Assembly: GCA_963555755.3 (NCBI GenBank)
Contig: OY820905.2
Location: forward strand, 3,904,001-3,968,000
DNA: 64,000 nucleotides
Source of the DNA: Nitrospirales bacterium
Lineage (GTDB): Bacteria; Nitrospirota; Nitrospiria; Nitrospirales; UBA8639
Direction: 5' to 3'
The notes beneath the pieces were generated by a model that was not told the origin of the DNA, did not search any database, and saw nothing but the letters and a program-made list of their open reading frames with translations. The translations under genes were made by a program, and so were the position numbers. Positions 1 to 14,550 of the stretch are shown here, one piece after another; the first letter of the stretch is position 1; the number at the start of each line of letters is the position of its first letter.

Positions 1-1
1 T

Positions 2-559
2 GCGTCGGCATCGGTGCTGGCCATCTACCGAGACCCGCAAACTACCTCTAAAATACTTCGAGATCGGCTGCAGGCAGCCCTTACTCCTCTCATGCCGATC
101 ACCATCATTAGCAATCAGGAATTACGAGCTGAGATTCTCGAAATTTTTGATCGAACCTTCCGGGTCACGCATGGCTTGGAACTAATTGCGGTGCTCGTTG
201 GGCTATTGGGCATCGTCAATACCCTACTCACCGCAATCATCGAACGCCAACGAGAGTTCGCCACCTATCGCGCCATTGGAGCCGGGGTGCGGCAAATTCA
301 AGCCATGGTGTTGTGGGAATCACTAATTCTCGGCGCCATCGGCGCAATCCTAGGCTTACTGGCCGGCCTGCTCCTAGCCGCCCTGCTCATCTTCGTCATC
401 AACAAACAATCCTTCGGATGGACCATCCAATTCGTAGTTTCCTGGGGTACCTTAGTCGGCGCAGTAACGGTCGCCGGCATAGCCGCAATCGTAGCCGGTT
501 ACCTCCCAGCCCGTTGGGTCACCAAAGGCGTCATCGCCGAGGGGTTACGGTATGAGTGA
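2..559 (+). CDS. ABC transporter permease, FtsX/MacB-like, C-terminal part (5' truncated by window)
   Basis: Frame is open from the window edge. Hydrophobic TM segments, 'NTLLTAIIERQREFATYRAIGA' FtsX-type motif and C-terminal 'LPAR...LRYE'. Confidence 0.85.
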   Translation, partial: ASASVLAIYRDPQTTSKILRDRLQAALTPLMPITIISNQELRAEILEIFDRTFRVTHGLELIAVLVGLLGIVNTLLTAIIERQREFATYRAIGAGVRQIQAMVLWESLILGAIGAILGLLAGLLLAALLIFVINKQSFGWTIQFVVSWGTLVGAVTVAGIAAIVAGYLPARWVTKGVIAEGLRYE

Positions 560-597
560 TGGATAAAGAAATCTTGGTTTATTTGCCTTGTCCAATG

Positions 598-616
598 TGC
601 TAGCATCATGCCAGCA
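598..616. promoter_or_regulatory. Putative RHH-antitoxin operator
   Basis: TGCTAGCA (598-605) and TGCCAGCA (609-616) lie 11 bp apart just upstream of the antitoxin and resemble FitA-type half sites. Confidence 0.4.
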
Positions 617-651
617 TAAAACAATGAATCATTTAGCTAAGGAGCATAGCC

Positions 652-876
652 ATGAGCACCCTCACCATTAGAAAAATTCCAGAAGCCATTCTCGATCGGC
701 TCAAAGCAGTTGCCAGTCGGAAGGATCATTCCATGGAACAAGAAGTACGTGAATTGCTTAAAAAAAAGTATGCCACTACTCCCGAGATAGCCTCACGGAT
801 TCAGAAGCGGTGGAAAGAATTACCCAAGACCACCCCTGCGAAAATAAAAACATGGCGCCAAGTCGGTCGTCCCTAA
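652..876 (+). CDS. FitA/Arc-like ribbon-helix-helix antitoxin
   Basis: 74 aa, 'MSTLTIRKIPEAILDRLKAVA...SMEQEVRELL' RHH pattern. AAGGAG RBS; lies directly upstream of a PIN toxin. Confidence 0.85.
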   Translation: MSTLTIRKIPEAILDRLKAVASRKDHSMEQEVRELLKKKYATTPEIASRIQKRWKELPKTTPAKIKTWRQVGRP

Positions 877-889
877 AGAGGTCTACCTG

Positions 890-1303
890 GTGGTTGTAGA
901 TACCATGGTCTTTGCCTACGCGCTCCTTGGAGTCTCACGTTTTCGTGACGAATCCCTCTCGGTATTAACCAATGTTGAAGATATCCTGGTTCCCGATAGC
1001 TTCCGAGCCGAACTCGTGAATGTGGTATGGCAATGGACGCGCGAAAACCAATTGACCCTTGAGGTTGGCATGAATGTGCTGGCAGATGCGGATGCCCTAA
1101 TCACCCATGCGGCTCCTGCGGACGAGTTGTGGGAACGTGCGCTTGAGTTGTCTGTGGCCGCGAATCATCCAGCCTATGACACCCTGTTCGTAGCACTAGC
1201 CGAGAGAGAAGGGACCGGCCTCATTACCTACGACACAAAATTGCGCAAAAAGTTTCAGGATCAGACTATCTCGCCCTCGGACTTTCTTGCCAATCTGTCT
1301 TGA
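890..1303 (+). CDS. vapC: PIN-domain VapC/FitB-type toxin
   Basis: 'VVDT' N-terminus, conserved E, 'AYDTLFVALA' and 'LITYD' acidic PIN motifs. Confidence 0.9.
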   Translation: MVVDTMVFAYALLGVSRFRDESLSVLTNVEDILVPDSFRAELVNVVWQWTRENQLTLEVGMNVLADADALITHAAPADELWERALELSVAANHPAYDTLFVALAEREGTGLITYDTKLRKKFQDQTISPSDFLANLS

Positions 1304-1334
1304 TAGAAATTGTTCAAAATCCATATGAAATAAC

Positions 1335-1460
1335 GTCATTTCTCCGAGCACCCTCATTGGAGCAGTCACCGTAGCAGGCGTCGCCGCAATCGCCGCCGCC
1401 TACCTCCCAGCCCGCTGGGTCACCAAAGGCGTCATCGCCGAGGGTTTGCGGTATGAATGA
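1335..1460 (+). pseudogene. Diverged second copy of the ABC permease 3' end
   Basis: Translates VISPSTLIGAVTVAGVAAIAAAYLPARWVTKGVIAEGLRYE*, 34/41 aa identical to 434-559, with many synonymous changes. Confidence 0.92.
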
Positions 1461-1576
1461 TAGGCAGGTGACGAGTTTATTTGCACCTAGCATTTGTTTA
1501 TACTCTTCCTCATGAAGTTAGTTGCCATTTATTAAAATCACATCAGCTGGATTCAATTTCATTTCTATCTGACATC

Positions 1577-4378
1577 ATGACCACACCGGAAGACCAAGCC
1601 CGCGAAACTATTGACAAACTCTTGGAACAAGCAGGGTGGAGCGTTCAGGATGCCAAGCAAGTCAACTTGAGTGAAGCGCAGGGAGTAGCGATTAGAAACT
1701 TCTCTTTGGAGCACGGGCATGGCTTTGCGGATTACCTCCTTTATGTAAATGGGAAAGCTGCAGGAGTCGTCGAAGCCAAAAAAGAGGGCCATACGCTCAC
1801 AGGCGTAGAAATTCAGAGCGGGAAGTATAGAGACGGCTTGCCAGTGCACTTGCCAGCGCATACCCGCCCCTTGCCATTTCTCTATCAAAGCACTGGGATC
1901 GAAACCCGCTTTACCAACGAACTTGATCCGGAACCGCGAAGCCGTCTCACCTTTGCCTTTCATAAACCAAAAACCCTGGCGGACTGGCTAGCCGAAGCAA
2001 ACATTCCACAAGCCGAACCAAAACCAACCCAACTGGCCGCAGAGCACCGCGAGACTTATAAAACCTACTCCACCGTTCGAAAACGCCTCCAGCAATTACC
2101 AACGCTTATTGAAGAAGGCCTCTGGCCCGCGCAAAAGATTGCCATCAAAAATCTGGAACAGTCGCTGGCCCAAGACCGCCCCCGTGCCCTCATTCAAATG
2201 GCCACCGGCAGCGGCAAGACTTTCACTGCCATTACCGCCATCTATCGCCTCATCAAATTCGCCGGAGCCCGGCGCGTCTTATTCTTGGTGGATCGGGGCA
2301 ACCTGGGCGACCAAACCCTCAAAGAATTCCAGCAGTATGTCTCGCCGTATAACAACTTTAAATTCACCGAAGAATTCATCGTCCAGCGACTCAGCAGCAA
2401 CACGCTCGACACCACCGCACGGGTGTGCATCAGCACCATCCAACGCATGTACTCCATGCTCAAGGGCAAAGAACTCTCGGATGAAGACGACGAAGCGTCC
2501 ATTGGTGGCCTGGAAAATCTTTTCAAACAACCGGAACCTCTTGAATACAACCCGGCCATCCCCATCGAAACCTTCGACGTCATCATCACCGACGAATGTC
2601 ACCGCTCCATCTATAATCTCTGGGCACAAGTGCTCGAATACTTCGATGCCTACCTCATCGGCCTCACTGCCACACCCAGCAAGCAAACCTTTGGCTTCTT
2701 CCACCAAAACCTGGTCATGGAATATCCCCACGAGCAGGCCGTGGCCGATGGCGTCAACGTCAACTACGACGTGTATCGCATCCGCACCGCCATCTCCCAA
2801 GCCGGCTCAAAAGTGGACGCAGGACTCTTTGTGGAAAAGCGCGAACGAGAAACCCGAAAAACACGGTGGGAACAACTCGAAGACGACTTCGCCTACGACC
2901 CCAACCAACTCGATCGCGACGTCGTCGCCCCGGACCAAATCCGCACCATCGTCAAAACCTTCCGGGACAAACTGTTCACCGAGATCTTCCCAGGCCGCAC
3001 CGAAGTACCCAAAACACTCATTTTCGCCAAAGACGATGCCCACGCCGAAAACATCGTCGAAATCCTGCGAGAAGAATTCGCCAAGGGCAACGACTTCGCC
3101 CAAAAGATCACCTATCGCACCACCGGGGCCAATCCCAAGGACCTCATCAAGTCGTTCCGAAACAGCTATCACCCGCGCATCGCCGTTACCGTGGATATGA
3201 TCGCTACCGGCACCGACATCAAACCCGTGGAAATCGTCGTCTTCATGCGGGCCGTCAAATCCCGCTCGTTCTTTGAACAAATGAAAGGGCGCGGCGTGCG
3301 CGTCATCAAGGCAGACGACCTAAAAGCCGTCACCCCGGATGCCACCACCAAAGATCACTTCGTCATCGTGGATGCGGTGGGCGTCTGTGAGCAGGATAAA
3401 ACCGACGCCCGCCCCATGGAGAAAAAACCCAGCGTCTCCTTTGAAAAACTGCTGCAAGCGGTCTCTCTGGGCAACACCGAAGAAGACGTCCTCACCACCA
3501 TCGCAGGACGCCTAGCCCGCATGGAACACCGCCTCACCAAAGAAGACGAACAAACCATTGTGAAGGCCAGTGGAGGGTTAAACCTCAAAGACCTCAGCCA
3601 CCGCCTCTTGGAAGCCGTCGATCCCGATAAACTCGACACTACTTCCCTAGACGAAAAAGGTGCCGATGCCCTACGAGCCAAACTCATCCAAGACGCCGTC
3701 AAACCCTTTCACGATCCCAAACTACGGGAACTCCTCGTCGACATCAAAAAGAAAAACGAAATCACCATCGACCACGTCAGCCAAGATCAAATCATCGAAG
3801 CAGGGTTCAGTGCCGAAGCCCTTGACCGAGCCAAAGGCATCGTCCACTCCTTCGAACAATTCATACAAGACCACAAAGACGAAATCACCGCCCTTCAGGT
3901 GCTGTACAGTAAACCCTACAAGGCAAGACTCACCTTCGAGCACATCAAGGAACTCGCCGCAGCCATCGAAAGGCCACCCTATCTCTGGAACGAATCACAA
4001 CTCTGGCAAGCCTATGCTGCGCTGGAGGAGTCGAAGGTCAAAGGGACCAGTGCCAAGCGTATTCTCACGGATTTGGTTTCCTTGGTTCGGTTCGCCATCC
4101 ATCAGGACAATGAACTGATTCCCTTCCCCGAGAAAGTCCAGGTCAACTTCAAGGCATGGATGACCCAGCAAGAAGCATCAGGAAAAACATTCACCGAGGA
4201 GCAGGGACATTGGCTAGAAATGATCCGCGACCACATCGCTGCCAATCTGAGCATCGACACAGAAGATTTTGACTATGCACCGTTCGCTCAGGAAGGTGGA
4301 TTAGGGAAAGTGCATCAAGTATTTGGAGAAAAGCTGAATGGGATCATTGAAAAATTGAATGGGGCATTAGCGGCATGA
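1577..4378 (+). CDS. hsdR: Type I restriction enzyme R subunit (EcoEI/EcoAI-like)
   Basis: 'ADYLLY...VVEAKK' nuclease, 'MATGSGKT', 'DECHRS', 'TATP', 'FEQMKGRGVR'. Start placed at ATG 1577 (MTTPEDQAR). Confidence 0.95.
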   Translation: MTTPEDQARETIDKLLEQAGWSVQDAKQVNLSEAQGVAIRNFSLEHGHGFADYLLYVNGKAAGVVEAKKEGHTLTGVEIQSGKYRDGLPVHLPAHTRPLPFLYQSTGIETRFTNELDPEPRSRLTFAFHKPKTLADWLAEANIPQAEPKPTQLAAEHRETYKTYSTVRKRLQQLPTLIEEGLWPAQKIAIKNLEQSLAQDRPRALIQMATGSGKTFTAITAIYRLIKFAGARRVLFLVDRGNLGDQTLKEFQQYVSPYNNFKFTEEFIVQRLSSNTLDTTARVCISTIQRMYSMLKGKELSDEDDEASIGGLENLFKQPEPLEYNPAIPIETFDVIITDECHRSIYNLWAQVLEYFDAYLIGLTATPSKQTFGFFHQNLVMEYPHEQAVADGVNVNYDVYRIRTAISQAGSKVDAGLFVEKRERETRKTRWEQLEDDFAYDPNQLDRDVVAPDQIRTIVKTFRDKLFTEIFPGRTEVPKTLIFAKDDAHAENIVEILREEFAKGNDFAQKITYRTTGANPKDLIKSFRNSYHPRIAVTVDMIATGTDIKPVEIVVFMRAVKSRSFFEQMKGRGVRVIKADDLKAVTPDATTKDHFVIVDAVGVCEQDKTDARPMEKKPSVSFEKLLQAVSLGNTEEDVLTTIAGRLARMEHRLTKEDEQTIVKASGGLNLKDLSHRLLEAVDPDKLDTTSLDEKGADALRAKLIQDAVKPFHDPKLRELLVDIKKKNEITIDHVSQDQIIEAGFSAEALDRAKGIVHSFEQFIQDHKDEITALQVLYSKPYKARLTFEHIKELAAAIERPPYLWNESQLWQAYAALEESKVKGTSAKRILTDLVSLVRFAIHQDNELIPFPEKVQVNFKAWMTQQEASGKTFTEEQGHWLEMIRDHIAANLSIDTEDFDYAPFAQEGGLGKVHQVFGEKLNGIIEKLNGALAA

Positions 4379-5844
4379 GCATAACCAAGGCACAGGTAAG
4401 CGCTGATCTGAGCTTAAGGTTTGAGACACAAAAAATCGAGGATGTTGCGGACGTCAATCCACGCATAGACAAGTCGGCGATTCCAGAGGATCTGCTAGTT
4501 TCGTTTGTTCCCATGCCCGCCGTTGGCCCAGGCGATGGGACTATTAATGTTCAAGAGACACGGCCGGCCGGAGAAGTGAAGAAAGGCTTTACTTCTTTCC
4601 TAGAAAGGGACGTGCTGTTTGCCAAGATTACGCCCTGCATGGAAAACGGAAAGATGGCTGTTGTACCGAGACTCATAAACGATTACGGCTTTGGTTCAAC
4701 TGAATTCCATGTCCTTCGCCCACAACCAGGAATGGATGCCAAGTATCTTTATTATTACGTGTCTAGTAGGAACTTTCGCTCGGAAGCCGAACGGTATATG
4801 ACCGGAGCAGTTGGGCAAAGGAGGGTCCCAACAACTTATCTTAAGGAATCCAAGATTCCAGTAGCACCACCCGAACAACAAAAATGTATCGTTGCGGAAA
4901 TCGAAAAACAATTCTCCCGCCTCGACGAAGCCGTCGCTAACCTCAAACGGGTCAAGGCCAACCTCAAACGCTACAAAGCCGCCGTCCTCAAAGCCGCCGT
5001 CGAAGGCAAACTCACCGAAGCCTGGCGAAAAGCCCACCCCGACGTCGAACCCGCAAGTAAACTCCTCGAACGCATCCGCACCGAACGCAGAGCGAAGTGG
5101 GAAAAGACCGAAATCAACAAAATGGAAATAAAAGGCCAGGTGGCTATCAGTGATCAATGGAAGAATCGCTATAAGGCACCTTTAAAGTTAGATGAGGACG
5201 TGATTGCCAACATTCCACCAACGTGGGAGGAGGTCTCCCTTGATTCCATATCTAGCTTGATTACTGATGGCAAACACGGCGATTGTAACGACGAGACTGG
5301 GTCAGGGTATTACTTTCTTAGCGCAAAGGATGTTCATGACGGTAAGCTACACTACTCAAAAGCCAGGCAAATCAACAAAGATGAGTTCATGGAGGTTCAC
5401 TACAGAACAAACCTTGAATTAGATGACGTTTTAATTACAAATGCAGGAACAATAGGACGCGTCGCAATAGCTAAAGATAAACAAAAGCTGCCATTTACGA
5501 CTTTTCAAAAAAGTGTCGCAATAATCAAGCCCATTAAGACATTTGTGTCTTCGGGTTTTCTTGCATATCACCTCGAAGCGAATGTGAACAAAATGCAAGC
5601 GAAGTCTGCAGGTACTGCTGTGAAGAACTTGTTGCTAAGCACACTTAAGGCTACCCCCTTTTGCCTCCCCCCCCATGACGAGCAATTACAAATAGTGGAG
5701 GATGTTGAGCGCCGATTATCCATCATCGAGGAATTCGAAGCCACCGTCGAAGCCAACCTCACCCGCGCCGAGCGGCTGCGACAGTCAATCCTTAGCCGAG
5801 CATTTACCGGTCAGTTGATTGTGCAAGCTTTGGTGTCGCGATGA
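4375..5844 (+). CDS. hsdS: Type I R-M specificity subunit
   Basis: Two target-recognition domains (TRDs), each followed by conserved 'PP.EQ..IV..IE' helices. ATGA overlap with hsdR. Confidence 0.95.
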   Translation: MSITKAQVSADLSLRFETQKIEDVADVNPRIDKSAIPEDLLVSFVPMPAVGPGDGTINVQETRPAGEVKKGFTSFLERDVLFAKITPCMENGKMAVVPRLINDYGFGSTEFHVLRPQPGMDAKYLYYYVSSRNFRSEAERYMTGAVGQRRVPTTYLKESKIPVAPPEQQKCIVAEIEKQFSRLDEAVANLKRVKANLKRYKAAVLKAAVEGKLTEAWRKAHPDVEPASKLLERIRTERRAKWEKTEINKMEIKGQVAISDQWKNRYKAPLKLDEDVIANIPPTWEEVSLDSISSLITDGKHGDCNDETGSGYYFLSAKDVHDGKLHYSKARQINKDEFMEVHYRTNLELDDVLITNAGTIGRVAIAKDKQKLPFTTFQKSVAIIKPIKTFVSSGFLAYHLEANVNKMQAKSAGTAVKNLLLSTLKATPFCLPPHDEQLQIVEDVERRLSIIEEFEATVEANLTRAERLRQSILSRAFTGQLIVQALVSR

Positions 5845-6743
5845 GCACGTGGGAAGACTTATTTCGGTCATGGGCTCAAGGACCTGGAAAGACGGAAAGC
5901 GATAAATGCGAGAATGCCGAAGTGGCAGTGCGAAAAGCAATTAATGCTGACAGGGCACTTTCAAAATTGGACGTTAGCGTGTTTGCACAAGGTTCATACA
6001 AGTCCAGAACGAACGTGAAACAAGATAGCGACGTGGATATTTGTATTCGTTATAACGAAGCGTTTTTCCCAGAATATCCCGATGGGAGATCTAGTGATGA
6101 CTTTGGGAACGTTGATTCTGGCTTAAAGTTTTTCGATTTCAAAGAAATCGTTGAAAAGGCCCTTAAATCCTATTTTGGGTCATCGGCAGTTAGGCGGGGC
6201 AATAAGGCATTTGACATCCATGCCAACACATATCGTATCGATGCAGATGTTGTCCCGACCTACGAGTATAGGTGTTACACAGGTGGATTGGATAGGGATG
6301 GGAACCACGATTATCTTTCAGGTGTGGCGTTTCTTACTGATGAAGGCAAGAAGATTATCAACTGGCCTCAACAGACCTTCGATAATGGAGTGGAACGGAA
6401 TACTGAAACAGGGAGGCGGTACAAGCGCGTCATTAGAATTCTTAAGCGGCTCCGAAACGCCATGCAAGAGGACGGGATATCAGAATCTGAGAATGTGGCT
6501 TCATTTCTCATAGAATCCATTGTATGGAATGCACCAGTAGAGGACTTCCAGCATGACACATATACCGCCGATGTACAGAATGTAATCGCGGATATTTTTA
6601 ATCGAACCCTCACTGAAAAGGAGTGCTCCGAATGGGGTGAGGTGAACGAACTCAAGTATCTCTTTCGAGCATCTCAGCCTTGGACAAGAGAACAGGCCAA
6701 CCAGTTTCTTGACGCAGCCTGGCACTATATAGGATTCGAATGA
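5841..6743 (+). CDS. cdnE: CBASS CD-NTase, CdnE-like cyclic dinucleotide synthase
   Basis: 300 aa, 'QGSYKSRTNVKQDSDVDI' (GS...DxD), 'DADVVP', 'IINWPQQ', 'YKRVIRILKRLRN', 'SFLIESIVWN'. Confidence 0.9.
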   Translation: MSTWEDLFRSWAQGPGKTESDKCENAEVAVRKAINADRALSKLDVSVFAQGSYKSRTNVKQDSDVDICIRYNEAFFPEYPDGRSSDDFGNVDSGLKFFDFKEIVEKALKSYFGSSAVRRGNKAFDIHANTYRIDADVVPTYEYRCYTGGLDRDGNHDYLSGVAFLTDEGKKIINWPQQTFDNGVERNTETGRRYKRVIRILKRLRNAMQEDGISESENVASFLIESIVWNAPVEDFQHDTYTADVQNVIADIFNRTLTEKECSEWGEVNELKYLFRASQPWTREQANQFLDAAWHYIGFE

Positions 6744-7396
6744 AAAACCTTCACCTGAAGCGATTTGCCCTGGTTCTGTTTGGTGTATTCGCTATTAGCT
6801 TCATATGTGTTGCACTCCAAAGTGGAAAGACTGTCCAAGATCTATGGAGTGCACTCGCTATCGCTTACAAGACAATCCCCATACTTTTGGTAGCGTTAGG
6901 AGTATTTATCAATTGGGCGTGGCGTTGGAAAATCTTCTGCGGCTGGCTGGTTCCATTTCCAGACCTTAACGGTACATGGCAAGGTACGATTCAGACTACA
7001 TGGAAAAACCCAGAGACTGGAGAAGTCCCTGGCCCCATACCTGTCATCCTTACAATTAAGCAGTCCTTCACTCGAATCAGTTGTGTCATGCGCACAGCCG
7101 AAATGACCAGTCGCAGTTATCTGGCTGATTTTTGGTTGGATGGAGATGAGCAAATACGAAAACTCGGCTACAGTTACCACAGTAAACCATTGCCCTCGGT
7201 GGCAGATCGTAGTCAGCCACACGATGGAACCATAGTGTTTGAAATAGTTGGAACTCCCGTAGAAAAGCTGAAAGGGGTTTATTGGACCGAAAGAAAGTCC
7301 AAAGGCGAAGTTACCCTTCGTTTCAGGGAAAAGCATTTGCTAGAAGAATTCCCAAAGAATCTCGGTATTCATCCCGTGGCAGGAAAGCGGCAATGA
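6740..7396 (+). CDS. cap15: CBASS Cap15-like 2TM + beta-barrel membrane effector
   Basis: Two N-terminal TM helices, then 'PDLNGTWQGTIQTTW' and a beta-rich domain ending 'LKGVYWTERKSKGEV'. ATGA-coupled to the CD-NTase. Confidence 0.85.
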   Translation: MKNLHLKRFALVLFGVFAISFICVALQSGKTVQDLWSALAIAYKTIPILLVALGVFINWAWRWKIFCGWLVPFPDLNGTWQGTIQTTWKNPETGEVPGPIPVILTIKQSFTRISCVMRTAEMTSRSYLADFWLDGDEQIRKLGYSYHSKPLPSVADRSQPHDGTIVFEIVGTPVEKLKGVYWTERKSKGEVTLRFREKHLLEEFPKNLGIHPVAGKRQ

Positions 7397-7512
7397 ATAA
7401 CAGTTCCTCTACAGCATCAACCCAAATCGTCCAAAAACTCTGGAACTACTGTAATGTCCTCCGCGACGACGGGATGAGCTACGACATTCAATGTAAAGAT
7501 TTCAGCCAATAA
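7393..7512 (+). pseudogene. Truncated duplicate of the hsdM 5' end
   Basis: MNNSSSTASTQIVQKLWNYCNVLRDDGMSY then diverges. 7423-7481 matches 9225-9283 at 56/59 nt, and the 3 differences are synonymous. Confidence 0.92.
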
Positions 7513-7519
7513 TTGGACC

Positions 7520-8164
7520 ATGACCCCAATTCCTACCTCGATACTTCGTTTTACGCACGTGGATAACCTGGCCACAATCATCCAGCGAGGTGGACTTCAT
7601 GCACCAAACCTCGTGCCCGATGATGGATTGAATTATCGCTTCTGTCACAGTGCCGAAGTTCAGGGAGCCCGTGCTGAGGTACCTATTCATCTAGGACCGG
7701 GTGGGACCATTCATGACTATGTGCCGTTCTATTTCGGGTATCTGTCGCCCATGATGTTAAACCTGAGGACCGGCCGCGTGGAAGGTTATACCGAAGGACA
7801 GGAACCTCTGATCTATCTCGTCGCCTCGGCTCAAGCTATTGAAGCGGCTGGCATCAGGTTTGTGTTTTCAGATGGGCATGGCCTTGCTATTTTCACTGAA
7901 TGGTTTGATGATTTTGCCAAATTAGATGCTATTGATTGGACGTTGGTGTATGAGCGATATTGGTCGGACAATATTAATGATATGGATCGCCAGCGAAAGA
8001 AACAGGCTGAATTTCTTGTGCATCAGTTTTGTCCTTGGTCGATAATCCATGAAATTGTAGTGATCGATTCGGCCATGCAGCAGCGCGTGGAGACGATTCA
8101 GGCAGCCTTCCCTGCAGATCAAAGAAAGGTAGTCAGGATTGATCCAAATTGGTACTATTGGTGA
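7520..8164 (+). CDS. darT: DarT DNA ADP-ribosyltransferase toxin (DUF4433)
   Basis: 'FTHVDNL..I...GL', 'DYVPFYF..LSPM', 'FSDG', 'KQAEFLV' with the catalytic Glu. Confidence 0.93.
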   Translation: MTPIPTSILRFTHVDNLATIIQRGGLHAPNLVPDDGLNYRFCHSAEVQGARAEVPIHLGPGGTIHDYVPFYFGYLSPMMLNLRTGRVEGYTEGQEPLIYLVASAQAIEAAGIRFVFSDGHGLAIFTEWFDDFAKLDAIDWTLVYERYWSDNINDMDRQRKKQAEFLVHQFCPWSIIHEIVVIDSAMQQRVETIQAAFPADQRKVVRIDPNWYYW

Positions 8165-8172
8165 CCTAACTT

Positions 8173-9213
8173 ATGATTAGAAACGCGACAGGTAATCTCC
8201 TTCAGGTTGACGCCGAAGCCCTGGTTAATACCGTCAACTGTGATGGTTTCATGGGCAAGGGCATTGCTCTGCAATTCAAGCAAGCCTGGCCCGAGAACTT
8301 CGAGGCCTATGCCCGTGCATGTCGTGGGAAAGAAGTCCGACCTGGAGAGATGTTTATCTGGGAAACCGGACGCATGATGAACCCGAAGTACATCATCAAC
8401 TTCCCAACTAAACGACACTGGCGAGGTAAATCTCGAATGGAAGACATCCGCAGCGGGCTGCACGCCTTGGTTGCAGACATGCGTCGCTTGGGAATTCACT
8501 CAATCGCTGTCCCGCCGTTAGGATGTGGTAACGGTGGACTTGATTGGCAAGAGGTTCGTCCCCTCATTGAATCCGCGTTTGCCGAAGTACCCGACGTGGC
8601 TGTTCAGTTGTTCGGCCCCCTTGGCGCACCTGATGCGAAGACCATGCCGGTGAACACGAAAAAACCTTCGATGACTATCAGTCGCGCCTTGTTCGTCAAG
8701 GTCATGCACCAATATGAAACCTTGAGTTATCGCCTTACATTATTAGAGGTTCAAAAACTGGGATACTTTCTCCAAGAAGCTGGGGAACCTCTTAGATTGA
8801 GATTTCAGGCAGGATTGTACGGACCCTATGCCGCGAATTTGAATAAAGTGTTGGAACGAATCGAAGGACATTTTATTCGTGGTTACGGTGATACCCAAAA
8901 ACCGGATACCGACATTGAACTGCTTCCCGGTGCGATTGAAGAAGCCAACAAGTTTCTTAGCGAGCACCCGATACCCATCTCACGGTTGAACCGAGTGGGC
9001 GATCTTATCCAAGGGTTTGAGACACCATATGGTATGGAGTTACTGTCCTCAGTCCATTGGGTTTCCACGTATGGCAAGCCGAAGGCCACTACCTTGGAGA
9101 TGGCCGTAGAGTCCATTCATTCGTGGAATGAGAGAAAGCAGAAGATGTTCCGCCCTGAACATATTCACATTGCCTATCAGCGCCTCCATGAGCTTTCTTG
9201 GATAGCCAAGTGA
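8173..9213 (+). CDS. darG: DarG macrodomain antitoxin
   Basis: 'GNLL...AEALVNTVNC.G.MGKGIALQFK', 'IINFPTKRHW', 'PPLGCGNGGL', plus C-terminal 'LEVQKL.YFLQ...YGPYA'. Confidence 0.95.
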   Translation: MIRNATGNLLQVDAEALVNTVNCDGFMGKGIALQFKQAWPENFEAYARACRGKEVRPGEMFIWETGRMMNPKYIINFPTKRHWRGKSRMEDIRSGLHALVADMRRLGIHSIAVPPLGCGNGGLDWQEVRPLIESAFAEVPDVAVQLFGPLGAPDAKTMPVNTKKPSMTISRALFVKVMHQYETLSYRLTLLEVQKLGYFLQEAGEPLRLRFQAGLYGPYAANLNKVLERIEGHFIRGYGDTQKPDTDIELLPGAIEEANKFLSEHPIPISRLNRVGDLIQGFETPYGMELLSSVHWVSTYGKPKATTLEMAVESIHSWNERKQKMFRPEHIHIAYQRLHELSWIAK

Positions 9214-10715
9214 GTTCTTCAAATCAAATCGTCCAAAAACTCTGGAATTACTGTAACGTCCTGCGCGACGACGGGATGAGCTATGGCGACTATGTCGAGC
9301 AGTTGACGTATTTGCTGTTTCTCAAAATGGCCGATGAGCGGACGAAGCCGCCCTATTCTCAGCCTAGCGAAATACCAAGCAAATACAGTTGGCCCAGTCT
9401 CTTGAAAAAGGATGGTGACGAGCTCTTCGACCACTACCGCCATCTCCTTGAAGAGCTAGGGAAAGAAAAGGGCCTTCTCGGACTGATCTTCACCAAGGCC
9501 CAGAACAAGTTTCAGGACCCGGCCAAGCTACGGCGATTGATCGTCGATTTGATCGATAAGGAAAATTGGTCGGTGATGAGTGCCGATGTGAAAGGTGATG
9601 CCTATGAAGGGCTCCTAGAGAAGAATGCGCAGGATACCAAGACCGGCGCCGGGCAGTACTTCACCCCGCGTCCACTGATCCAAGCTATTGTCGATGTAAT
9701 TCAACCCAAGCCTGGCGAAACACTTTGTGACCCTGCTTGCGGGACAGGTGGCTTTCTTTTGGCGGCTCACGATTACCTTGTGAAGCAAAATCCGAATCTC
9801 ACGAAGGATCAAAAGAAGCAACTGAAGGAAAGCACGCTCAGGGGATGTGAGCTGGTCCAGGGCGTGGCCCGATTGTGTGCCATGAATTTGCTCCTCCACG
9901 GTATCGGGAGTCAGGATTATGAGCCGATTGTCGTATCGGATTCATTAGCCGCTGATCCTGGCGATCGGTATGACATTGTCTTGACCAATCCACCGTTTGG
10001 GAAAAAGAGCAGCACCACGATTGTAGGAGAAGAAGGGAAAGTCTCAAAGGAACGGGACATTGTTGAGCGGGATGATTTTTGGGCGAGCACTTCCAATAAA
10101 CAGCTCAACTTTATCCAGCATGTAAAGACCCTGCTGAAACAACACGGCCGAGCGGCCGTGGTCGTGCCGGATAACGTCCTCTTCGAAGGCGGCGCAGGAG
10201 AGACGATCCGGCGGAAGCTTTTGCATGAGTGTGATGTGCACAGCCTACTCCGTCTACCCACCGGTTTGTTTTATGCCCAAGGTGTGAAAGCCAACGTGTT
10301 GTTTTTCGATAAACGACCTGGCGGGGAATCGGCATCCACCCAAAAACTGTGGATCTACGACCTGCGCACGAATAAACATTTTACCTTGAAGACCGGCCCG
10401 TTAAAACGTGAAGACCTGGATGAGTTTGTAAAATGTTACAATCCGGCCAATCGGCATACTCGCAAACCGACCTGGTCAGAGAAGAACCCCGAAGGCCGCT
10501 GGCGGTCTTACGACTATGACGAATTAGTCGCCCGCGACAAAGCCAGCCTTGATCTCTTCTGGCTCAAAGACGACTCTCTCGAAGACTCTGCTAATTTGCC
10601 CGATCCCGATGTGATCGCCCAAGAAATCGTCGACGACCTCGAAGCCGCACTTGAACAGTTTCGCGAAATCGCCAATGACTTAGGTGACGAAACAGAAATA
10701 CCGAAAGTTACCTGA
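9210..10715 (+). CDS. hsdM: Type I R-M N6-adenine methyltransferase subunit
   Basis: 'GQYFTPR', 'DPACGTGGFL', 'NPPFG'. GTG start at 9210 overlaps the darG TGA. Confidence 0.96.
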   Translation: MSSSNQIVQKLWNYCNVLRDDGMSYGDYVEQLTYLLFLKMADERTKPPYSQPSEIPSKYSWPSLLKKDGDELFDHYRHLLEELGKEKGLLGLIFTKAQNKFQDPAKLRRLIVDLIDKENWSVMSADVKGDAYEGLLEKNAQDTKTGAGQYFTPRPLIQAIVDVIQPKPGETLCDPACGTGGFLLAAHDYLVKQNPNLTKDQKKQLKESTLRGCELVQGVARLCAMNLLLHGIGSQDYEPIVVSDSLAADPGDRYDIVLTNPPFGKKSSTTIVGEEGKVSKERDIVERDDFWASTSNKQLNFIQHVKTLLKQHGRAAVVVPDNVLFEGGAGETIRRKLLHECDVHSLLRLPTGLFYAQGVKANVLFFDKRPGGESASTQKLWIYDLRTNKHFTLKTGPLKREDLDEFVKCYNPANRHTRKPTWSEKNPEGRWRSYDYDELVARDKASLDLFWLKDDSLEDSANLPDPDVIAQEIVDDLEAALEQFREIANDLGDETEIPKVT

Positions 10716-10810
10716 TCTTTTATCCAAACCCGGAGTCTCCTATGGGCACAGATCTCCTCAGGAAACACATTCAAGAATATGTTTAACACGCTTAAAGCAG
10801 GAGAAACGAT

Positions 10811-11023
10811 ATGGCCCAAAAAGTAAAAATTTGGTTTGATCCTGAAGGAGATTTTCTGGAAGTCCAGTTCAAGGATGCCCCTGGTTTCATGCGTCCGACT
10901 GCCCACGATGCTGTCATGGAACGTGTCGATGAGCAGGGCCGCGTGCTTGGATTTAGCGTACAGGGTGTGAGCCGTTTTCGAAAAGACCATCCTCTAGAAG
11001 CCGAACTTGTCGCAGGAGAATAA
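10811..11023 (+). CDS. DUF2283-like small protein (putative antitoxin)
   Basis: 70 aa, 'KIWFDPEGDFLEV...VDEQGRVLGFSV' pattern; GGAG RBS. Confidence 0.75.
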   Translation: MAQKVKIWFDPEGDFLEVQFKDAPGFMRPTAHDAVMERVDEQGRVLGFSVQGVSRFRKDHPLEAELVAGE

Positions 11024-11068
11024 TCCTCCTTCTTTTTCCTCTTTGACAAGGTTTTCTCTTCAGCCCCG

Positions 11069-11100
11069 CTTGACTCATAACTTGACTTACACTTGACTTA
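11069..11100 (+). promoter_or_regulatory. Three direct CTTGACT repeats upstream of the Fic gene
   Basis: CTTGACT at 11069, 11081 and 11092 (12 and 11 bp period). Confidence 0.5.
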
Positions 11101-11127
11101 TTCGAAGGCCCCTACTAACCTAAGGGG

Positions 11128-12132
11128 ATGCCATTTCAGCCCACATTCACTATCACCCCACGTTTACTGACCCTTATCGAGGAAATCTCCGCATTCCGGG
11201 AGAAGATTCTCTCGGCCACGATTCAGGTTCCTTGGATTCCGACCCTCCAAAAGGATGCGCGGGTTCGAAACACCCACAGTTCTACGGCCATCGAGGGTAA
11301 TCCTCTCACGCTTGAACAAGTCCGCCTGTTAGAAGAGGGGCAGTCTCTTCCCACTGAGCCCCAACGTGCGACACGTGAGGTGCTCAACTATTTCTCTGGT
11401 CTGCGCTTCATTGAAAAACTTCCACCAGATAAGCCCACCGCCCATAAAGAAATTTTTTCACTCCATTCCCTTGTGGCGTCAGATGTGATGGATCAGGGGA
11501 AAGCCGGCCGGTATCGTGATATTCATGTGCAGGTCGGTCGCTATGTGCCACCCCCGCCTGAGATTGTATCTGGTTTAATGGCTGAACTGTTGGATTGGTG
11601 GAATAAAAACTTCTCACCGTGGTCTCCTGTGATCTCGTCGGCAATCATTCATTATCAGTTTGAGGATATCCATCCCTTTGCAGATGGTAATGGTCGTACT
11701 GGCCGGCTTCTAGCACTTTGGGAATTATATCGCCGTGGTTTCGACACCCACCATATCTTTTCCGTAGATGATTATTTTTGGAAGGATCGAGACCGGTATT
11801 ACACATCCCTGGCTGCCGTCAGAAAAGAGGGCGGCGATTTAACCAGTTGGCTTGAATATACAGCCGAGGCCATTCATGTCTCATTAGAACAAGTTTGGGA
11901 TCGGATTCAACATCTTTCTGCTGGCACGGGAAAGAAAAAATTTGTGTTGCGACCCAAGCAGGAACAGCTCCTCCGACTTCTCCGTGATCGACAAAGTCTT
12001 ACCCCACAGGAAATCCGTGAGGGAATTGGTGTGTCCAAACAAGGTGCGATGGATTTATTGAATCCACTCCTAGAGGCAGGCTTGGTTCAACGGGTGGGAA
12101 CAAGAAAGTCAGGACGATATATTTTGTCTTGA
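11128..12132 (+). CDS. Fic family protein with C-terminal winged HTH
   Basis: Canonical HPFADGNGRTGR, N-terminal inhibitory 'STAIEGN', C-terminal wHTH-like region. Confidence 0.92.
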   Translation: MPFQPTFTITPRLLTLIEEISAFREKILSATIQVPWIPTLQKDARVRNTHSSTAIEGNPLTLEQVRLLEEGQSLPTEPQRATREVLNYFSGLRFIEKLPPDKPTAHKEIFSLHSLVASDVMDQGKAGRYRDIHVQVGRYVPPPPEIVSGLMAELLDWWNKNFSPWSPVISSAIIHYQFEDIHPFADGNGRTGRLLALWELYRRGFDTHHIFSVDDYFWKDRDRYYTSLAAVRKEGGDLTSWLEYTAEAIHVSLEQVWDRIQHLSAGTGKKKFVLRPKQEQLLRLLRDRQSLTPQEIREGIGVSKQGAMDLLNPLLEAGLVQRVGTRKSGRYILS

Positions 12133-12204
12133 AGAGGGTCACCCCTAAAAACCAAATCCAAAATCTCCTCCCCTTCTTAAATTTCACAGACTAAAGCTGG
12201 GAAG

Positions 12205-12481
12205 TTAAGCTGGAGCCGGAGAATTCACCTGAACCTCAAATCCCATGTCTTGGATCATTTGTTGGACTTCGTTGGCCGGGGCTCCCGGGGTGGTGAGGTA
12301 GCCGTTGACGAATAGGGAGTCAGCGACGTACAGCGCCAGGGGTTGGAGAGAGCGTAGGTTGAATTCACGTCCTCCTGCTGCGCGGAGTTCTCGTTTGGGG
12401 TGGAAGAATCGGACCATGCTCATGATCTTCAGGCAGCGTTTTGGCGTTAAATGGTTCGAGTCTACCAAGGGTGTCCCGGAT
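12205..12481 (-). pseudogene. Diverged second copy of the bioB 3' end
   Basis: About 91 open codons (SGTPLVDSNHLTPKRCLK...FEVQVNSPAPA*) homologous to 13452-13731, with about 9 aa differences and many synonymous changes. Confidence 0.95.
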
Positions 12482-12538
12482 AGGGGTAGTCCTTTTCAGG
12501 GGTTTTCCGTTTGATCCAACCGGTGTACAATTGAGTTC

Positions 12539-12724
12539 ATGTCTACAGAACAGTCGTCATCCCCTACCCGTCCCACTCGTCGCCCCAGTCCTTTGAGTGA
12601 ACGTTTGACTCAGGAGAAACTCGAAGAGGCTCGGGCCTTGTCTCCCACACAGCGTTTACTCCTTGCCCTTCAACTCTCTGATACTTGCCTTGAGTTACAG
12701 CGCTCGTGTTCGACCAAGCATTAA
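12539..12724 (+). CDS. Small putative antitoxin (MenA1-like position)
   Basis: 61 aa helical protein ('LSPTQRLLLALQL') overlapping the downstream NTase. Confidence 0.6.
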   Translation: MSTEQSSSPTRPTRRPSPLSERLTQEKLEEARALSPTQRLLLALQLSDTCLELQRSCSTKH

Positions 12725-13251
12725 CAACTATCACTCGCCGTTTGGATGAGGCTAAAGCTCAAGGCTTTTTAAAAGACTATGCTTTGATTGGTGGATTTGC
12801 CGTTTCTGCCTGGGGCATCCCTCGCGCCACGCAGGATGTGGACTTTGCATTGGTCTTAGGCTCAGCCGACCCAGAGGGCTTATCGCGCCATCTCGATTCG
12901 GAGTTTTTGCCTGGAGATGGGGACGATCCTTTGCGAGGTGTCTTTCAGCTCAAACTTTCTATTGAGGATCAGAGAGTTCCCGTTCAGCTAATCTTGCTTC
13001 CCCCTCGGTGGACCTCCATTATAATCGATGGCATTGTGACCCTGTCAGTGTTGGGCTGCAGTGTTCCGGTTATCTCCTGGGAAGGGCTTATCCTCCTGAA
13101 GTTGTATGCCGGGGGCCCTCAAGACCTTCTTGATGCTCAACACATTTTTGCCGTCCGAAAACCCACGGTAAACGAGATCGAGAAACTGTCTAAGTTGGCG
13201 GTTCAGGTTGATCTGTTGGGTGCTTTTCGTGATCTTGTTAATCGACTCTAA
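12706..13251 (+). CDS. Nucleotidyltransferase toxin, MenT1/AbiEii-like
   Basis: 'YALIGGFAVSAWGIPRATQDVD' and 'LILLKLYAGGPQDLLD' motifs. Confidence 0.8.
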   Translation: MFDQALTTITRRLDEAKAQGFLKDYALIGGFAVSAWGIPRATQDVDFALVLGSADPEGLSRHLDSEFLPGDGDDPLRGVFQLKLSIEDQRVPVQLILLPPRWTSIIIDGIVTLSVLGCSVPVISWEGLILLKLYAGGPQDLLDAQHIFAVRKPTVNEIEKLSKLAVQVDLLGAFRDLVNRL

Positions 13252-13338
13252 TCGTCTACTTTTCAACATTTCTCATCGACCAAAGAACGATGAAAGATTT
13301 GGCCTATCTATAGTGTTTTAACTTTTGGAGAAGAGAAC

Positions 13339-13373
13339 CCCTCACCCCAACCCTCTCCCCACAGGGGCGAGGG
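13339..13373. repeat. REP-like hairpin, family H (CCCTCTCCC..GGG type)
   Basis: ccctcaccccaaccctctccccacaggggcgaggg. Related copies near 32411, 37272, 39000, 39095, 51455-51600, 54672-54762, 55163-55293 and 60158-60277. Confidence 0.7.
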
Positions 13374-13451
13374 AAAATTGAGGTCTCCCAGTTGAAAGTC
13401 AAAAAACTATCAAAAGGCAAATTCCAACGATGGACTGCTTTGGCCCGGAAG

Positions 13452-14444
13452 TTAGGCTGGGCAAGCAGGCGAATTTACCTGAACCTCGAAACCCATGTCT
13501 TCAATCATTTGTTGGACTTCGTTGGCGGGTTGGCCGGGGGTGGTGAGGTAGCCGTTGACGAAAAGGGAGTCTGCGACATAGAGGGCTAAGGGTTGAAGGG
13601 AGCGTAGGTTAAATTCACGTCCTCCGGCTGCGCGTAGTTCCCGTTTGGGGTGGATGAAGCGGAACATGCACATGATTTTCAGACAGCGTTGCGGTGTTAA
13701 ATGGTTGGAGTTTTCTAATGGTGTCCCGGATGCGGGGTGGAGCATATTGAGTGGAATGGAATCCGGATTAAGTTCGCGCAGGGAAAACGCTAAATCCACG
13801 AGGTCTTCGTCTTGTTCACCCATGCCCACGATACCACCCGAACAGAGCTCAAGCCCTGCGGCTCTGGCGTTGTTTAACGTGGTCACCCGATCTTGAAAGG
13901 TATGTGTGGTGCAAATAGACGCGTGGTATGCTTCGCTGGTGTTCAGGTTGTGATTGATTCGATCAACCCCTGCGGCTTTGAGTCGCTTGGCTTGTGGCTC
14001 GGTGAGTAGGCCGAGGGAGCAGCATACTTGAATGGGCAACTCGTCTTTTATTTGGCGAACAGCTTTGGAGATTTCCTCGATTTCCCGATCTAGCGGGCTT
14101 CTTCCGCTAATCACGACACAGTAGCGTTGGGCTTTGGCCTCGACAGCGCGTCTGGCGGCTTTGAGCATTTGTTCGGGCTCGACGAGGGCATAGCGATCAA
14201 TCGGTGCTGTGGAAATTGACGATTGCGAGCAGTAATGGCAATCTTCCTGGCAGGCCCCGCTCTTTGCATTGAACAGCATTTGTAAAGTCACCATGTTGCC
14301 GAAATGCCGGTGGCGGATTCGGTACGCGGCGTTGATCAACCCCAGCAATTCCTCATCCGGGGTTTGGAGCAGGGACAGGCTTTCCTCGCGTGTAATTTCT
14401 TCATCCCGCAACACGTTGTCGGCAAGCTGGGTATAGGGTGTCAT
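13452..14444 (-). CDS. bioB: Biotin synthase
   Basis: Radical SAM 'CQEDCHYCSQS', 'NHNLNTS', 'CSGGIVGMGE', 'GYLTT'. Confidence 0.97.
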   Translation of the reverse strand: MTPYTQLADNVLRDEEITREESLSLLQTPDEELLGLINAAYRIRHRHFGNMVTLQMLFNAKSGACQEDCHYCSQSSISTAPIDRYALVEPEQMLKAARRAVEAKAQRYCVVISGRSPLDREIEEISKAVRQIKDELPIQVCCSLGLLTEPQAKRLKAAGVDRINHNLNTSEAYHASICTTHTFQDRVTTLNNARAAGLELCSGGIVGMGEQDEDLVDLAFSLRELNPDSIPLNMLHPASGTPLENSNHLTPQRCLKIMCMFRFIHPKRELRAAGGREFNLRSLQPLALYVADSLFVNGYLTTPGQPANEVQQMIEDMGFEVQVNSPACPA

Positions 14445-14550
14445 GAGTTTGCTCCGTGCAATAAGAAGTCGGGTTTGTCTTAGGATTGCAGTACTGCGAT
14501 GGCTAGGCTGTCACGGATTTGTTGAATGGGTTGTCGGCAAGCAGAGGTTA

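Follow-up and report, generated by a model that had tools for sequence, protein, structure and literature searches.

Toxin-antitoxin pairs between live and spare ends of core genes in a Nitrospirales genome

Roughly one sixth of the toxin-antitoxin (TA) pairs in the genome of this marine Nitrospirales bacterium sit, without an integrase, between the live end of a gene and a diverged spare copy of that end. We consider it somewhat better than an even bet (about 55%) that these pairs arrived by insertion-duplication through host homologous recombination. The arrangement likely reflects selfish pairs that spread by the cell's own recombination and use a gene end as their handle. In the window, by which we mean the whole 64,000-nt stretch analysed (contig OY820905.2, positions 3,904,001 to 3,968,000), three direct repeats each flank TA cargo: the 3' end of a permease gene, the 5' end of hsdM and the 3' end of bioB (Table 1).

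Organization and authenticity of the locus

The window repeats are present in two copies and are 65-285 nt long, and the inserts between them measure 0.8-1.7 kb. The whole permease ORF encodes 861 aa and starts 2 kb ahead of the window. Its spare begins at junction 1333/1334, 30 nt past the stop of the PIN toxin, and the junction of the bioB spare (12486/12487) lies 53 nt ahead of the 61-aa ORF. The hsdM stub keeps 28 in-frame codons, followed by unrelated sequence. Its ATG overlaps the cap15 stop (ATGA) and the GTG of intact hsdM overlaps the darG stop (GTGA); coupling of both hsdM starts to the preceding gene is expected if darTG brought its own start. The CBASS pair within the restriction operon was overlooked in the first-pass annotation of this DNA. 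The nucleotidyltransferase scored 23 bits against PF08843, just over the cut-off of 22.5, and its sole PDB match was chain 8an4_A (E 4e-5), which we take to be MenT1. Systems of the MenAT (MenT1) type consist of a DUF1814/AbiEii-like nucleotidyltransferase preceded by a small antitoxin. No family matched the 61-aa ORF in profile searches, and the two ORFs together are designated a putative MenAT-like pair.

Table 1. Features of the left part of the window (window coordinates)
Feature	Position	Strand	Basis and remarks
FtsX-type ABC permease gene, 3' part	14..559	+	PF02687; core gene, left anchor
Permease 3' end, live, repeated part	433..560	+	Repeat detection and alignment; 433-560 against 1334-1461, 128 nt, 80% identity
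FitA-like ribbon-helix-helix antitoxin	652..876	+	PF22513 over cut-off
PIN-domain toxin (VapC/FitB type)	890..1303	+	PF01850 over cut-off
Permease 3' end, spare, 42 codons and stop	1334..1461	+	Repeat detection and alignment
Type I restriction hsdR and hsdS	1577..5844	+	Pfam, PADLOC; hsdR start 1481 or 1577
CBASS pair: oligonucleotide cyclase and Cap15-type 2TM effector	5841..7396	+	PADLOC PDLC00801, PDLC00702; PF18153
hsdM 5' stub, homology 7417-7481	7393..7512	+	Repeat and translation; 7417-7481 against 9219-9283, 65 nt, 92% identity
darT and darG	7520..9213	+	NF048013, NF048014 over NCBIfam cut-offs, adjacent
Intact hsdM	9210..10715	+	PF02384, PF12161
DUF2283 gene and Fic-HTH gene	10811..12132	+	Family scan of ORFs
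bioB 3' end, spare, about 93 codons and stop	12200..12486	-	Repeat detection and alignment; 13447-13736 against 12200-12486, about 285 nt, 85% identity
Putative MenAT-like pair: 61-aa ORF 12539-12724 overlapping 181-aa nucleotidyltransferase 12706-13251	12539..13251	+	PF08843, PDB match
Multi-copy C-rich/G-rich hairpin repeat	13334..13375		Depth spike, loose contig ends
bioB, biotin synthase; repeated part 13447-13736	13452..14444	-	TIGR00433 over cut-off; core gene, right anchor

The three-cassette observation is genuine. The first-pass annotation had described three arrangements of gene-end copy, TA pair and gene within 13 kb, and all three were confirmed as direct repeats. A strain-chimeric assembly, which it had named as one outcome that would undo this, is not the case, as mismatch-free contigs bridge the three junctions. 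Contigs with 0 differences cover 1-4313 and 4319-10918 in run X2, 514-1429 and 5742-9311 in run X1, 10906-12583 in X1, X2 and X3, and 10889-13330 in X6; the spanning contigs come from runs of two studies, and the assembly itself may derive from one of them. None of the contigs listed crosses the hairpin at 13334-13375, and the link between the nucleotidyltransferase and bioB is based on the assembly and on similar depths. The same hairpin element also adjoins the metG junction. Neither an excised circle nor an empty-site joint was seen among the 15 joints listed of 38, which derive from assembled contigs, a source that drops rare forms.

The cassettes had been described as free of integrase and transposase, and no such family was found among the 18 ORFs scanned (14-15100), serine recombinases being sought via the Pfam scan of ORFs only. 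Tyrosine recombinases gave 16 matches in the genome, and the one closest to the cassettes starts at window position 29103, approximately 15 kb away. At 24 junctions there was no shared att core or motif, and duplicate lengths ranged from 29 to 876 nt, which speaks against the trans-acting site-specific recombinase that had also been proposed. An integrase-driven island at a gene 3' end fits poorly: no integrase was found in or beside the element, there is no fixed attachment core, and the junctions at bioB and der differ between genomes.

Genome-wide distribution of gene-end copies

Gene-end repeats occur in this genome beyond chance. A low-copy copy of the 3' end in direct orientation was found downstream of 36 of 2905 genes, against 4 with an upstream copy and 5 with an inverted one, and copies of the 5' end lay upstream of 17 genes and downstream of 7. 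This polarity fits insertion-duplication. TA loci lay between a gene 3' end and its spare copy in 17 of 96 cases, against 0 of 200 control genes (Fisher p = 2e-9), the controls including core genes, which makes the comparison with other accessory genes less exact. The scan for TA cargo among gene-end duplications that the first-pass annotation had called for thus returned an enrichment; about 79 of the 96 TA loci carry no such scar. A recognisable TA pair occupied the first interval in 15 of the 29 scars within 3.5 kb. Across scars, at least eight families of type II/IV-like TA pairs make up the cargo, and most do not cut DNA; the host genes include metG, der, gltA, nuoN and bioB. A few long scars, of 14-29 kb, are also present among the gene-end copies of the genome.

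Allelic differences between live and spare copies

The permease and bioB spares keep the gene frame without an internal stop, and their mismatches by codon position 1/2/3 (6/3/17 and 9/3/31, respectively) bear out the earlier description of in-frame duplicates with mostly synonymous differences. Pooled over 20 cassettes the counts were 96/61/307, so that 307 of 464 mismatches fell at the third position; the nuoN spare differed from the live copy by 0/0/20 (20 synonymous changes and none other) and acs by 0/0/9. Since the differences are mostly at third positions, the copies are alleles of different lineages, and the alleles of relatives interleave with them, in agreement with the earlier view of the duplicates as orthologous alleles and not neutral local duplications.

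The match to the closest relative was followed from 5' to 3' along the repeat at nine loci. It lay with the live copy on the 5' side and with the spare on the 3' side at cobW (p = 0.0003), DUF255 (p = 0.008), nuoN (p = 0.014) and DLH (p = 0.04), and the nine loci combined gave p = 0.0016, a value to be read with the caveat that sites within one tract are not independent and that the references are other species of about 83-96% identity. The switch was not significant at five of the nine loci, acs ran in the reverse direction, and at the window loci the signal was weak (bioB, p = 0.23; permease, p = 0.32 against L091 and 0.015 against G006). On this pattern, live and spare copies often appear to be reciprocal mosaics. 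The informative sites in comparisons with the closest relatives favoured the live copy over the permease and bioB spares (20/3, 20/5 and 29/12), which suggests that these two spares are mostly foreign allele and that equating a spare with the old end is too simple. The bioB gene is mosaic along its entire length, and later allele exchange could also yield its synonymous differences. The spares of cobW, nuoN and DLH contain allele runs that are common to other species and absent from the live copy.

Empty sites and alternative cargo in relatives

The permease and bioB genes lie less than 400 nt apart in 29 of the 52 genomes in which both were seen (an empty site), and in G004 they abut with a 12-nt gap. 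No empty site for the hsdM stub was found among relatives. At bioB the cargo is the MenAT-like pair here, Phd-PIN in G003, Fic in G006 and DUF433 in G022, and the four junctions differ (about 285, 221, 195 and 198 nt). The permease is followed by FitAB here and by zeta and DUF2283 in G003, again with different junctions, and der by another VapBC in G006, at a different junction. In G003 the permease end is present three times and each layer holds another TA, as anticipated by the proposal that islands grow by layers without breaking host genes; the idea of gene ends as recombination anchors likewise held. In a TPR (CcmI-like) gene, junctions 231 and 114 nt ahead of the stop occur in opposite order in G000 and G006, with the same most distal end. 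DNA matching the MenAT-like pair was found in 12 of the 80 family genomes, chiefly at loci other than this one. Layouts of donor type that lack a spare also occur, namely kinase-DUF433/DUF5615 in G005 and DUF255-VapBC in G006.

Over 70 nt the permease spare and that of G002 share 96% identity, DUF2283-fic is 85% identical to G002 at the nucleotide level, and a near-identical co-occurring strain has a joint from 11102 to 12494 (X1, X2 and X3), giving the order DUF2283, MenAT-like pair, bioB, with neither fic nor the bioB spare. These observations support in part the alternative in the first-pass annotation that the whole inner block was imported with its flanks. In the near-identical strain the 90 nt right of the bioB-spare junction carry 9 changes, so fic and the spare were exchanged by a double crossover, and this gives no date for the junction.

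Proposed mechanism and alternatives

Under insertion-duplication by host recombination, a fragment from a related lineage, consisting of the last 30-900 nt of a core gene and the adjoining TA pair, would have been closed or joined once by a rare illegitimate, sequence-independent join. As the mosaics suggest, a crossover inside the recipient's gene end would then give the live gene the donor's last part and leave a spare made up of donor sequence beside the junction, followed by the old resident end. Cargo, junction and anchor move together as a unit in the comparisons between genomes, presumably because both homology arms lie within one core gene end, and entry of this unit ahead of resident content would produce stacked layers with the host gene whole. 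Putatively, only anchors that include the stop or start leave the gene intact, and addiction together with a repeat mismatch of 5-20% would delay loss by pop-out and thereby account for the predominance of TA pairs in the scars that survive. Genes for ComEC (880-aa open frame) and DprA are present; genes for competence are no proof of transformation. We advance only tentatively the wider idea of a class of enzyme-free mobile cassettes, in which cargo, one junction and a core-gene-end copy would form a self-targeting unit that circularises or re-enters via host recombination and gives rise, at the ends of housekeeping genes, to integron-like arrays open to re-ordering; it would be a main route of TA spread, with addiction selecting for persistence.

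Homology-facilitated illegitimate recombination (HFIR) of linear DNA, which the first-pass annotation had suggested, would in its one-sided form pair the donor end with the gene and join the far end of the TA fragment inside the resident gene, the spare being the displaced old end. A homologous anchor is indeed present on one side (gene ends 80-98% alike), 20 of 27 informative sites in the DLH spare agree with the cassette-free G006 allele, the C-terminus of the bioB spare is short as in the empty-site genome G004, and the hsdM stub is coupled to cap15. HFIR features a short microhomology at the illegitimate join; a 3-nt overlap (ATA), possibly such a microhomology, could explain the G003 permease junction, whereas the kinase junction, the sole one with donor-type sequence in hand, has none. 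The plain one-sided form predicts a wholly native spare, but at permease and bioB the spare mostly differs from the closest relatives; nor does this form predict the switches inside the repeat at cobW and nuoN or cross-species junctions in changed order, and we regard it as rather unlikely. A resident TA pair might instead act as a barrier: neighbouring DNA anchored on its far side would bring a donor gene end, recombinants deleting the addictive pair would die, and the survivors' donor end would be joined just outside the pair. The gene order of the near-identical strain agrees with this, as do the many junctions 80 nt or less from the closest cargo ORF and the DUF255 series (DUF255-VapBC-YefM/YoeB without a spare in G006, DUF255-YefM/YoeB in G005, and both with an 875-nt spare in G000). 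However, that strain's swap does not date the junction, and a barrier should leave the live gene native throughout, contrary to DLH, cobW and nuoN, so that this reading is unlikely.

A single-strand (HUH) transposase of the TIRtron kind could cut at TGACCCC ends and make the non-homologous join, with recombination completing the other end. Of the Y1 transposase genes checked, several have TGACCCC at their flanks (17 Y1 family matches in the genome), homology of the kinase cassette with G005 stops 3 nt after the motif, and the motif was found no more than 25 nt from 3 of 24 junctions, compared with 1 of 168 control sites (p = 0.006 in a post hoc test). Against this, the motif is missing at the other 21 junctions, including those of permease and bioB, and at 19 of 19 in relatives, and junctions show no excess of multi-copy repeats overall (6/24 versus 56/168), so that this route is quite unlikely. 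Local long target duplication at insertion, with the live end later replaced by ordinary allele exchange, would suit the kinase repeat, whose first 119 nt are identical, and the mosaic genes of this genus; the allele runs that the cobW, nuoN and DLH spares share with other species, and the purely synonymous changes of nuoN, render it very unlikely. Gene-end replacement is the usual footprint of integrative elements, and the long scars may be decayed islands, whose integrase would have entered at the 3' end of a gene, supplied a new end and then disappeared. As a general account this is the least probable of the readings, given the lack of a shared core at the 24 junctions, the four bioB junctions in four genomes, and cassettes of 0.7-1.4 kb with 95-98% repeats in which no integrase remnant was found.

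Implications and comparison with known systems

The route by which TA pairs reach chromosomes without an adjoining mobile element is called 'poorly characterised' in a passage of PMC13617665 (2026). This genome offers approximately 20 dated scars and a testable rule, namely that the handle is a housekeeping gene end, often of an essential gene. DNA cleavage by the cargo is no longer required for insertion with long target duplication, and in core genes beside TA islets the last 100-300 nt may differ in history from the remainder. What is new relative to earlier work is the TA enrichment and the crossover evidence, the scar type being already known from restriction systems.

The closest known system is the insertion with long target duplication of restriction-modification genes. 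An earlier paper, Nobusato 2000, is reportedly associated with this type of event. According to the passages of Furuta, Abe and Kobayashi 2010 (PMC2853133) that describe it, the two systems agree in a cargo of two selfish genes that lacks a mobility gene, in empty sites in relatives, and in low-copy direct repeats, tens to hundreds of bases in length, which frequently take in a start or stop codon and keep the gene intact; the species concerned there are mostly competent. By the marks used in that paper, the present case shows an insert under 20 kb, a duplicated target over 30 bp, no mobility gene, a low-copy repeat and an empty site, with TA pairs as cargo in place of restriction and modification genes. 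Those passages link the insertion to some property of restriction systems, for instance double-strand breaks, whereas most TA cargo here is non-cutting, and the word 'toxin' is absent from the main text. The repeats here are also more diverged (80-98%), with alleles of two lineages, stacked layers and changes of order.

Passages of Kirchberger 2017 (PMC5361080) explain C-terminal displacement and orphan arrays at rhs, cdi and T6SS effector-immunity loci by HFIR. Serial insertion at a conserved anchor, older units pushed downstream and the lack of an integrase are common to both, and those arrays later move by homologous recombination; the anchor there is a toxin gene whose end is swapped for a new function, whereas here it is a housekeeping gene with a synonymous end and an unrelated TA operon. 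Long imperfect direct repeats without a recombinase are also shared with integrase-free circularising elements, the microcin H47 island and 'unconventional circularizable structures' (PMC5426353; Palmieri 2013 as cited there). In the passages concerned their repeats are 148 bp long and 77% identical, and excision and re-entry proceed through them; these are single elements with circles evidenced by PCR, H47 being RecA-independent, whereas here many small loci, seen in assembled sequence, have coding gene ends as repeats. Belot 2026 (PMC13617665) describes small TA islets that lie apart from mobile elements in a TA-rich chromosome, with spread proposed via homologous recombination at flanking core genes. 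That model involves two different flanking genes, with first entry by transposons and no duplicated gene end left, and the terms 'direct repeat' and 'illegitimate' are absent from the main text. Finally, darTG was placed between hsdS and hsdM in type I restriction operons by Jankevicius 2016 (PMC5179494), in a passage that gives no insertion mechanism, whereas the hsdM stub described here would be the footprint of one.

Organization of the permease-bioB island

The genome (4.62 Mb, two contigs) contains the window as C1:3904001-3968000, and the island in it is flanked by two core genes that converge, an FtsX-type ABC permease gene and bioB. Three gene-end repeats surround toxin-antitoxin (TA) cargo, all located where the first-pass annotation had placed them; each pairs a live copy, the intact gene's own end, with a spare, a diverged extra copy. 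The inner block additionally carries hsdR, hsdS, a CBASS pair, DUF2283 and fic. The annotation had also described the cassettes (TA pairs between live end and spare) as free of integrases and transposases, and this held: 18 ORFs were scanned without a mobility gene being detected, the closest tyrosine recombinase being 15 kb distant. Neither terminal inverted repeats nor a shared att core was found at the repeats or at the junctions (the cargo-side edges of the spares). A strain-chimeric assembly, raised beforehand as a possible artefact, was ruled out, as contigs of two studies, one of which may be the assembly's own source, span each junction with 0 differences; no contig among those listed spans a hairpin at 13334-13375. 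Runs containing part of this stretch are labelled sediment or marine.

Features of the window and of other loci examined (window positions unless a locus, L, is named; G003 and G006 are related genomes)
Feature	Position	Identity	Content
Permease end repeat	433-560 + 1334-1461	80%	FitA + PIN toxin
hsdM start repeat	7417-7481 + 9219-9283	92%	DarT + DarG
bioB end repeat	13447-13736 + 12200-12486	85%	Small ORF + nucleotidyltransferase like PDB 8an4 (MenAT-like pair)
CBASS cyclase and Cap15-type effector	5841-7396		Within type I restriction operon; coupled to hsdS as well as to the former hsdM start; top NCBIfam hit DS2_2 anti-phage nucleotidyltransferase, under cut-off
Miniature element upstream of bioB	14545-14713		Very high copy; 39-nt inverted arms, 91 nt between
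Same site in G006	L003:4048-13370		First 53 codons only of hsdR, then SNF2 helicase, AIPR, type III restriction pair
MenAT-like pair in G003	L001:12561-12839		Nucleotidyltransferase cut after 23 codons, then DUF6883-DUF4926
Permease-end insert, distant Nitrospiraceae	L267:11020-14017		LemA + GIDE-domain gene, non-TA cargo
Scar at ABC ATPase	L039:1184-1979		Filled by three small ORFs, none matching Pfam or NCBIfam
23-kb region bracketed by 90-nt copy of NFACT gene end	L042:10044-17605; L043:1181-4354		RHS/FG-GAP genes, two group II intron reverse transcriptases
DUF559 locus	L051:1454-3491		DUF559 alone, then again fused to front of peptidyl-arginine deiminase ORF; may be gene-call artefact
Tandem TGACCCC runs after rapA stop	L041:2400-2520; L057		As beside Y1 transposase genes; gene-end scar contains DEAD-box helicase

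Both core genes were seen in 52 genomes, of which 29 have them less than 400 nt apart and 23 carry an insert, indicating that this interval is an insertion spot whose empty state is common. A spare gene end is present in 4 of those 23. Beyond the genus, a permease or bioB spare was seen in metagenome loci, about 10 of the 80 compared. In distant Nitrospiraceae (L267, L122, L127, L145, L152, L272) an insert of 2.3-2.9 kb at the permease end also has a spare permease end. DarT relatives occur in 11 of 80 family genomes at 27-35% identity, and no donor for darTG-hsdM emerged from this comparison.

Gene-end repeats across the genome

Low-copy copies of gene ends were counted for 2905 genes of at least 450 nt. 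Direct copies of 3' ends lie downstream of 36 genes and upstream of 4, with 5 inverted, and copies of 5' ends lie upstream of 17 genes and downstream of 7, which is the polarity expected where insertion-duplication leaves the gene whole. A recognisable TA pair occupies the first interval of 15 of the 29 3' scars (gene-end direct repeats) within 3.5 kb, one of the 29 being unannotated: five PIN pairs, three DUF433/DUF5615, two DUF4160/DUF2442, and one each of MazEF, HicAB, MNT-HepT, HigBA and the MenAT-like pair. Host genes of scars include metG, der, gltA, nuoN, hflC and a TolC-type gene.

A local iterated search with 23 seed families gave about 96 TA-family loci on contig C1, after 20 of 116 matches had been dropped (shadow ORFs or E >1e-6). 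The predicted enrichment of TA cargo at gene-end duplications was observed: a repeat brackets 17 of 96 TA loci, one of them doubtful (HicA at 3641671) and one a lone AAA-DUF4143 gene, versus 0 of 200 control genes, which were small and had core genes among them (p 2e-9). Such a scar is missing from the majority of TA loci; three further bracketed loci (HicAB, ParDE, and FitAB at 4141750) were lost to the copy-number filter. In other genera, 3 of 28 DUF433 loci (L280, L284, L287) resemble gene-end repeats. The small ORFs of L039 may be an unnamed TA pair, to judge from one of them having a 41% relative next to DUF2283 in L093's bioB island. The second contig, C2 (14 kb), repeats C1:4141231-4153174 almost exactly and adds a 2.2-kb repeat that occurs at some ten sites; an assembly duplicate or an excised circle may account for it.

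Allelic nature of the copies

Mismatches between live and spare copies in 20 cassettes fall at first, second and third codon positions 96, 61 and 307 times (0, 0 and 20 in nuoN), in agreement with the mostly synonymous divergence reported initially, and the bioB copies (85%) are as distant as alleles of other species in the genus. At hsdM the live start overlaps the darG stop and that of the stub, the partial 5' copy, overlaps the cap15 stop, so each was formerly a working start. Judged by sequence, live and spare copies are alleles. Which of them is native varies by locus: at DLH, the spare agrees at 20 of 27 sites with a relative that lacks the cassette, and at permease and bioB the closest relatives are nearer to the live copy (20/3, 20/5 and 29/12 sites, live/spare). 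The view that the spare is the old end, taken from a C-terminal indel in bioB, was thus too simple. The permease spare is 96% like that of the related genome G002.

Along the repeat the match moves from live to spare in cobW and nuoN, and in the same direction in DUF255 and DLH, a switch that a single crossover within the repeat yields; five loci have no significant trend and acs is opposite in direction. The combined p of 0.0016 is overstated, the sites being linked, and covers neither metG nor cytochrome c, whose rows have no spare-type site. The comparison of cobW with G005, where the contig ends inside the gene, was set aside, and in G006 nuoN stops at a contig end, such that this site is perhaps not empty. 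Stop counts, which for several loci outside the window were offset artefacts, were not used.

Rearranged junctions and a second strain

At a CcmI-like TPR gene, the order in this genome is gene, two IS, HTH, spare (231 nt), ParDE, spare (114 nt), spare, and in G006 gene, ParDE, a remnant at the 114-nt junction, VapBC, HTH, spare (231 nt). Both genomes have the same junctions, in reverse order, and share their last end. In G003 the permease end is present three times, and successive layers hold a zeta-type pair and FitAB. Other cargo with new junctions was found at bioB (Phd-PIN in G003, Fic in G006, DUF433 in G022), and a different VapBC with a new junction at der in G006. The FitAB junction is at the same column in this genome, G002 and G003, with distances from spare start to stop of 127, 67 and 64 nt; this could equally reflect a defined right end or a deletion flush with the junction. 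The nuoN and MazEF cassettes were not found in 5 congeners, nor a match to the gltA end in 6, several of these genomes being 59-82% complete.

Window positions 10906-12583 in contigs of sequencing runs X1, X2 and X3, from both studies, revealed a near-identical second strain in the same samples. It shares the MenAT-like pair and bioB but has neither fic nor the bioB spare, and joins 11102 to 12494 via 59 other letters; the divergence of about 10% in its flanks suggests a double crossover between accessory genes. In run X1, a second contig has a diverged left side too (joints 560-652, 680-1232 and 1257-1473). The small-share runs X8, X9 and X10 contributed no result. Import of the inner block together with its flanks, the alternative offered by the first-pass annotation, is therefore supported for part of the block; at bioB, either fic or the MenAT-like pair may be the newcomer.

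Origin of the cassettes

We favour, at a probability of roughly 0.55, a rare illegitimate join followed by entry through a homologous crossover within the gene end. The entering DNA would be a circle, or a linear piece whose two arms both lie in that gene end, and addiction would be a putative filter on the surviving units; circles and recA dependence are hypothetical. ComEC and DprA genes are present in the genome. The VapBC pair at gltA is 93% identical to one at an unrelated site in G006, suggesting that a first arrival beside a gene would need a homology-free step. One-sided homology-facilitated illegitimate recombination would make the join at the moment of entry and is unlikely given the live-to-spare switches, and the TA pair acting as a resident barrier is slightly less likely again. 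Duplication of the neighbouring gene's end on the spot is improbable in view of the allele-like distances, and decayed islands that would have lost an integrase are the least probable reading. It may be that several routes operated at different loci.

The trans-acting recombinase proposed at first found no support: no dedicated enzyme is evident, and the 24 junctions have no common core motif and repeat lengths of 29-876 nt. Multi-copy repeats as junction makers were rejected, with 6 of 24 junctions versus 56 of 168 controls and hence no enrichment. A join made by a TIRtron, a single-strand (HUH, Y1) transposase element with TGACCCC ends, ranks just ahead of local duplication and is quite improbable as the general origin. 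The word is present at 3 of 24 junctions, those of permease and bioB being without it, and at none of the 19 from relatives; as a general cassette end it was rejected and retained as a minor route. It may mark the maker of some joins, such as that of the kinase cassette, in which the match to G005 stops just past TGACCCC.

Comparison with known systems

Among the articles listed by searches of the open literature, supplements aside, none was found to describe TA pairs lying between duplicated coding ends. In two papers, one TA pair lies between identical 152-bp intergenic repeats (PMC7935541), and duplications are bounded by IS (PMC3784515). The cassettes work in the manner of insertion with long target duplication, described for restriction systems (PMC2853133), although the cargo here is not that by which the class is defined. 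Orphan arrays at rhs and T6SS loci (PMC5361080) also work alike, whereas the anchors here are housekeeping genes.
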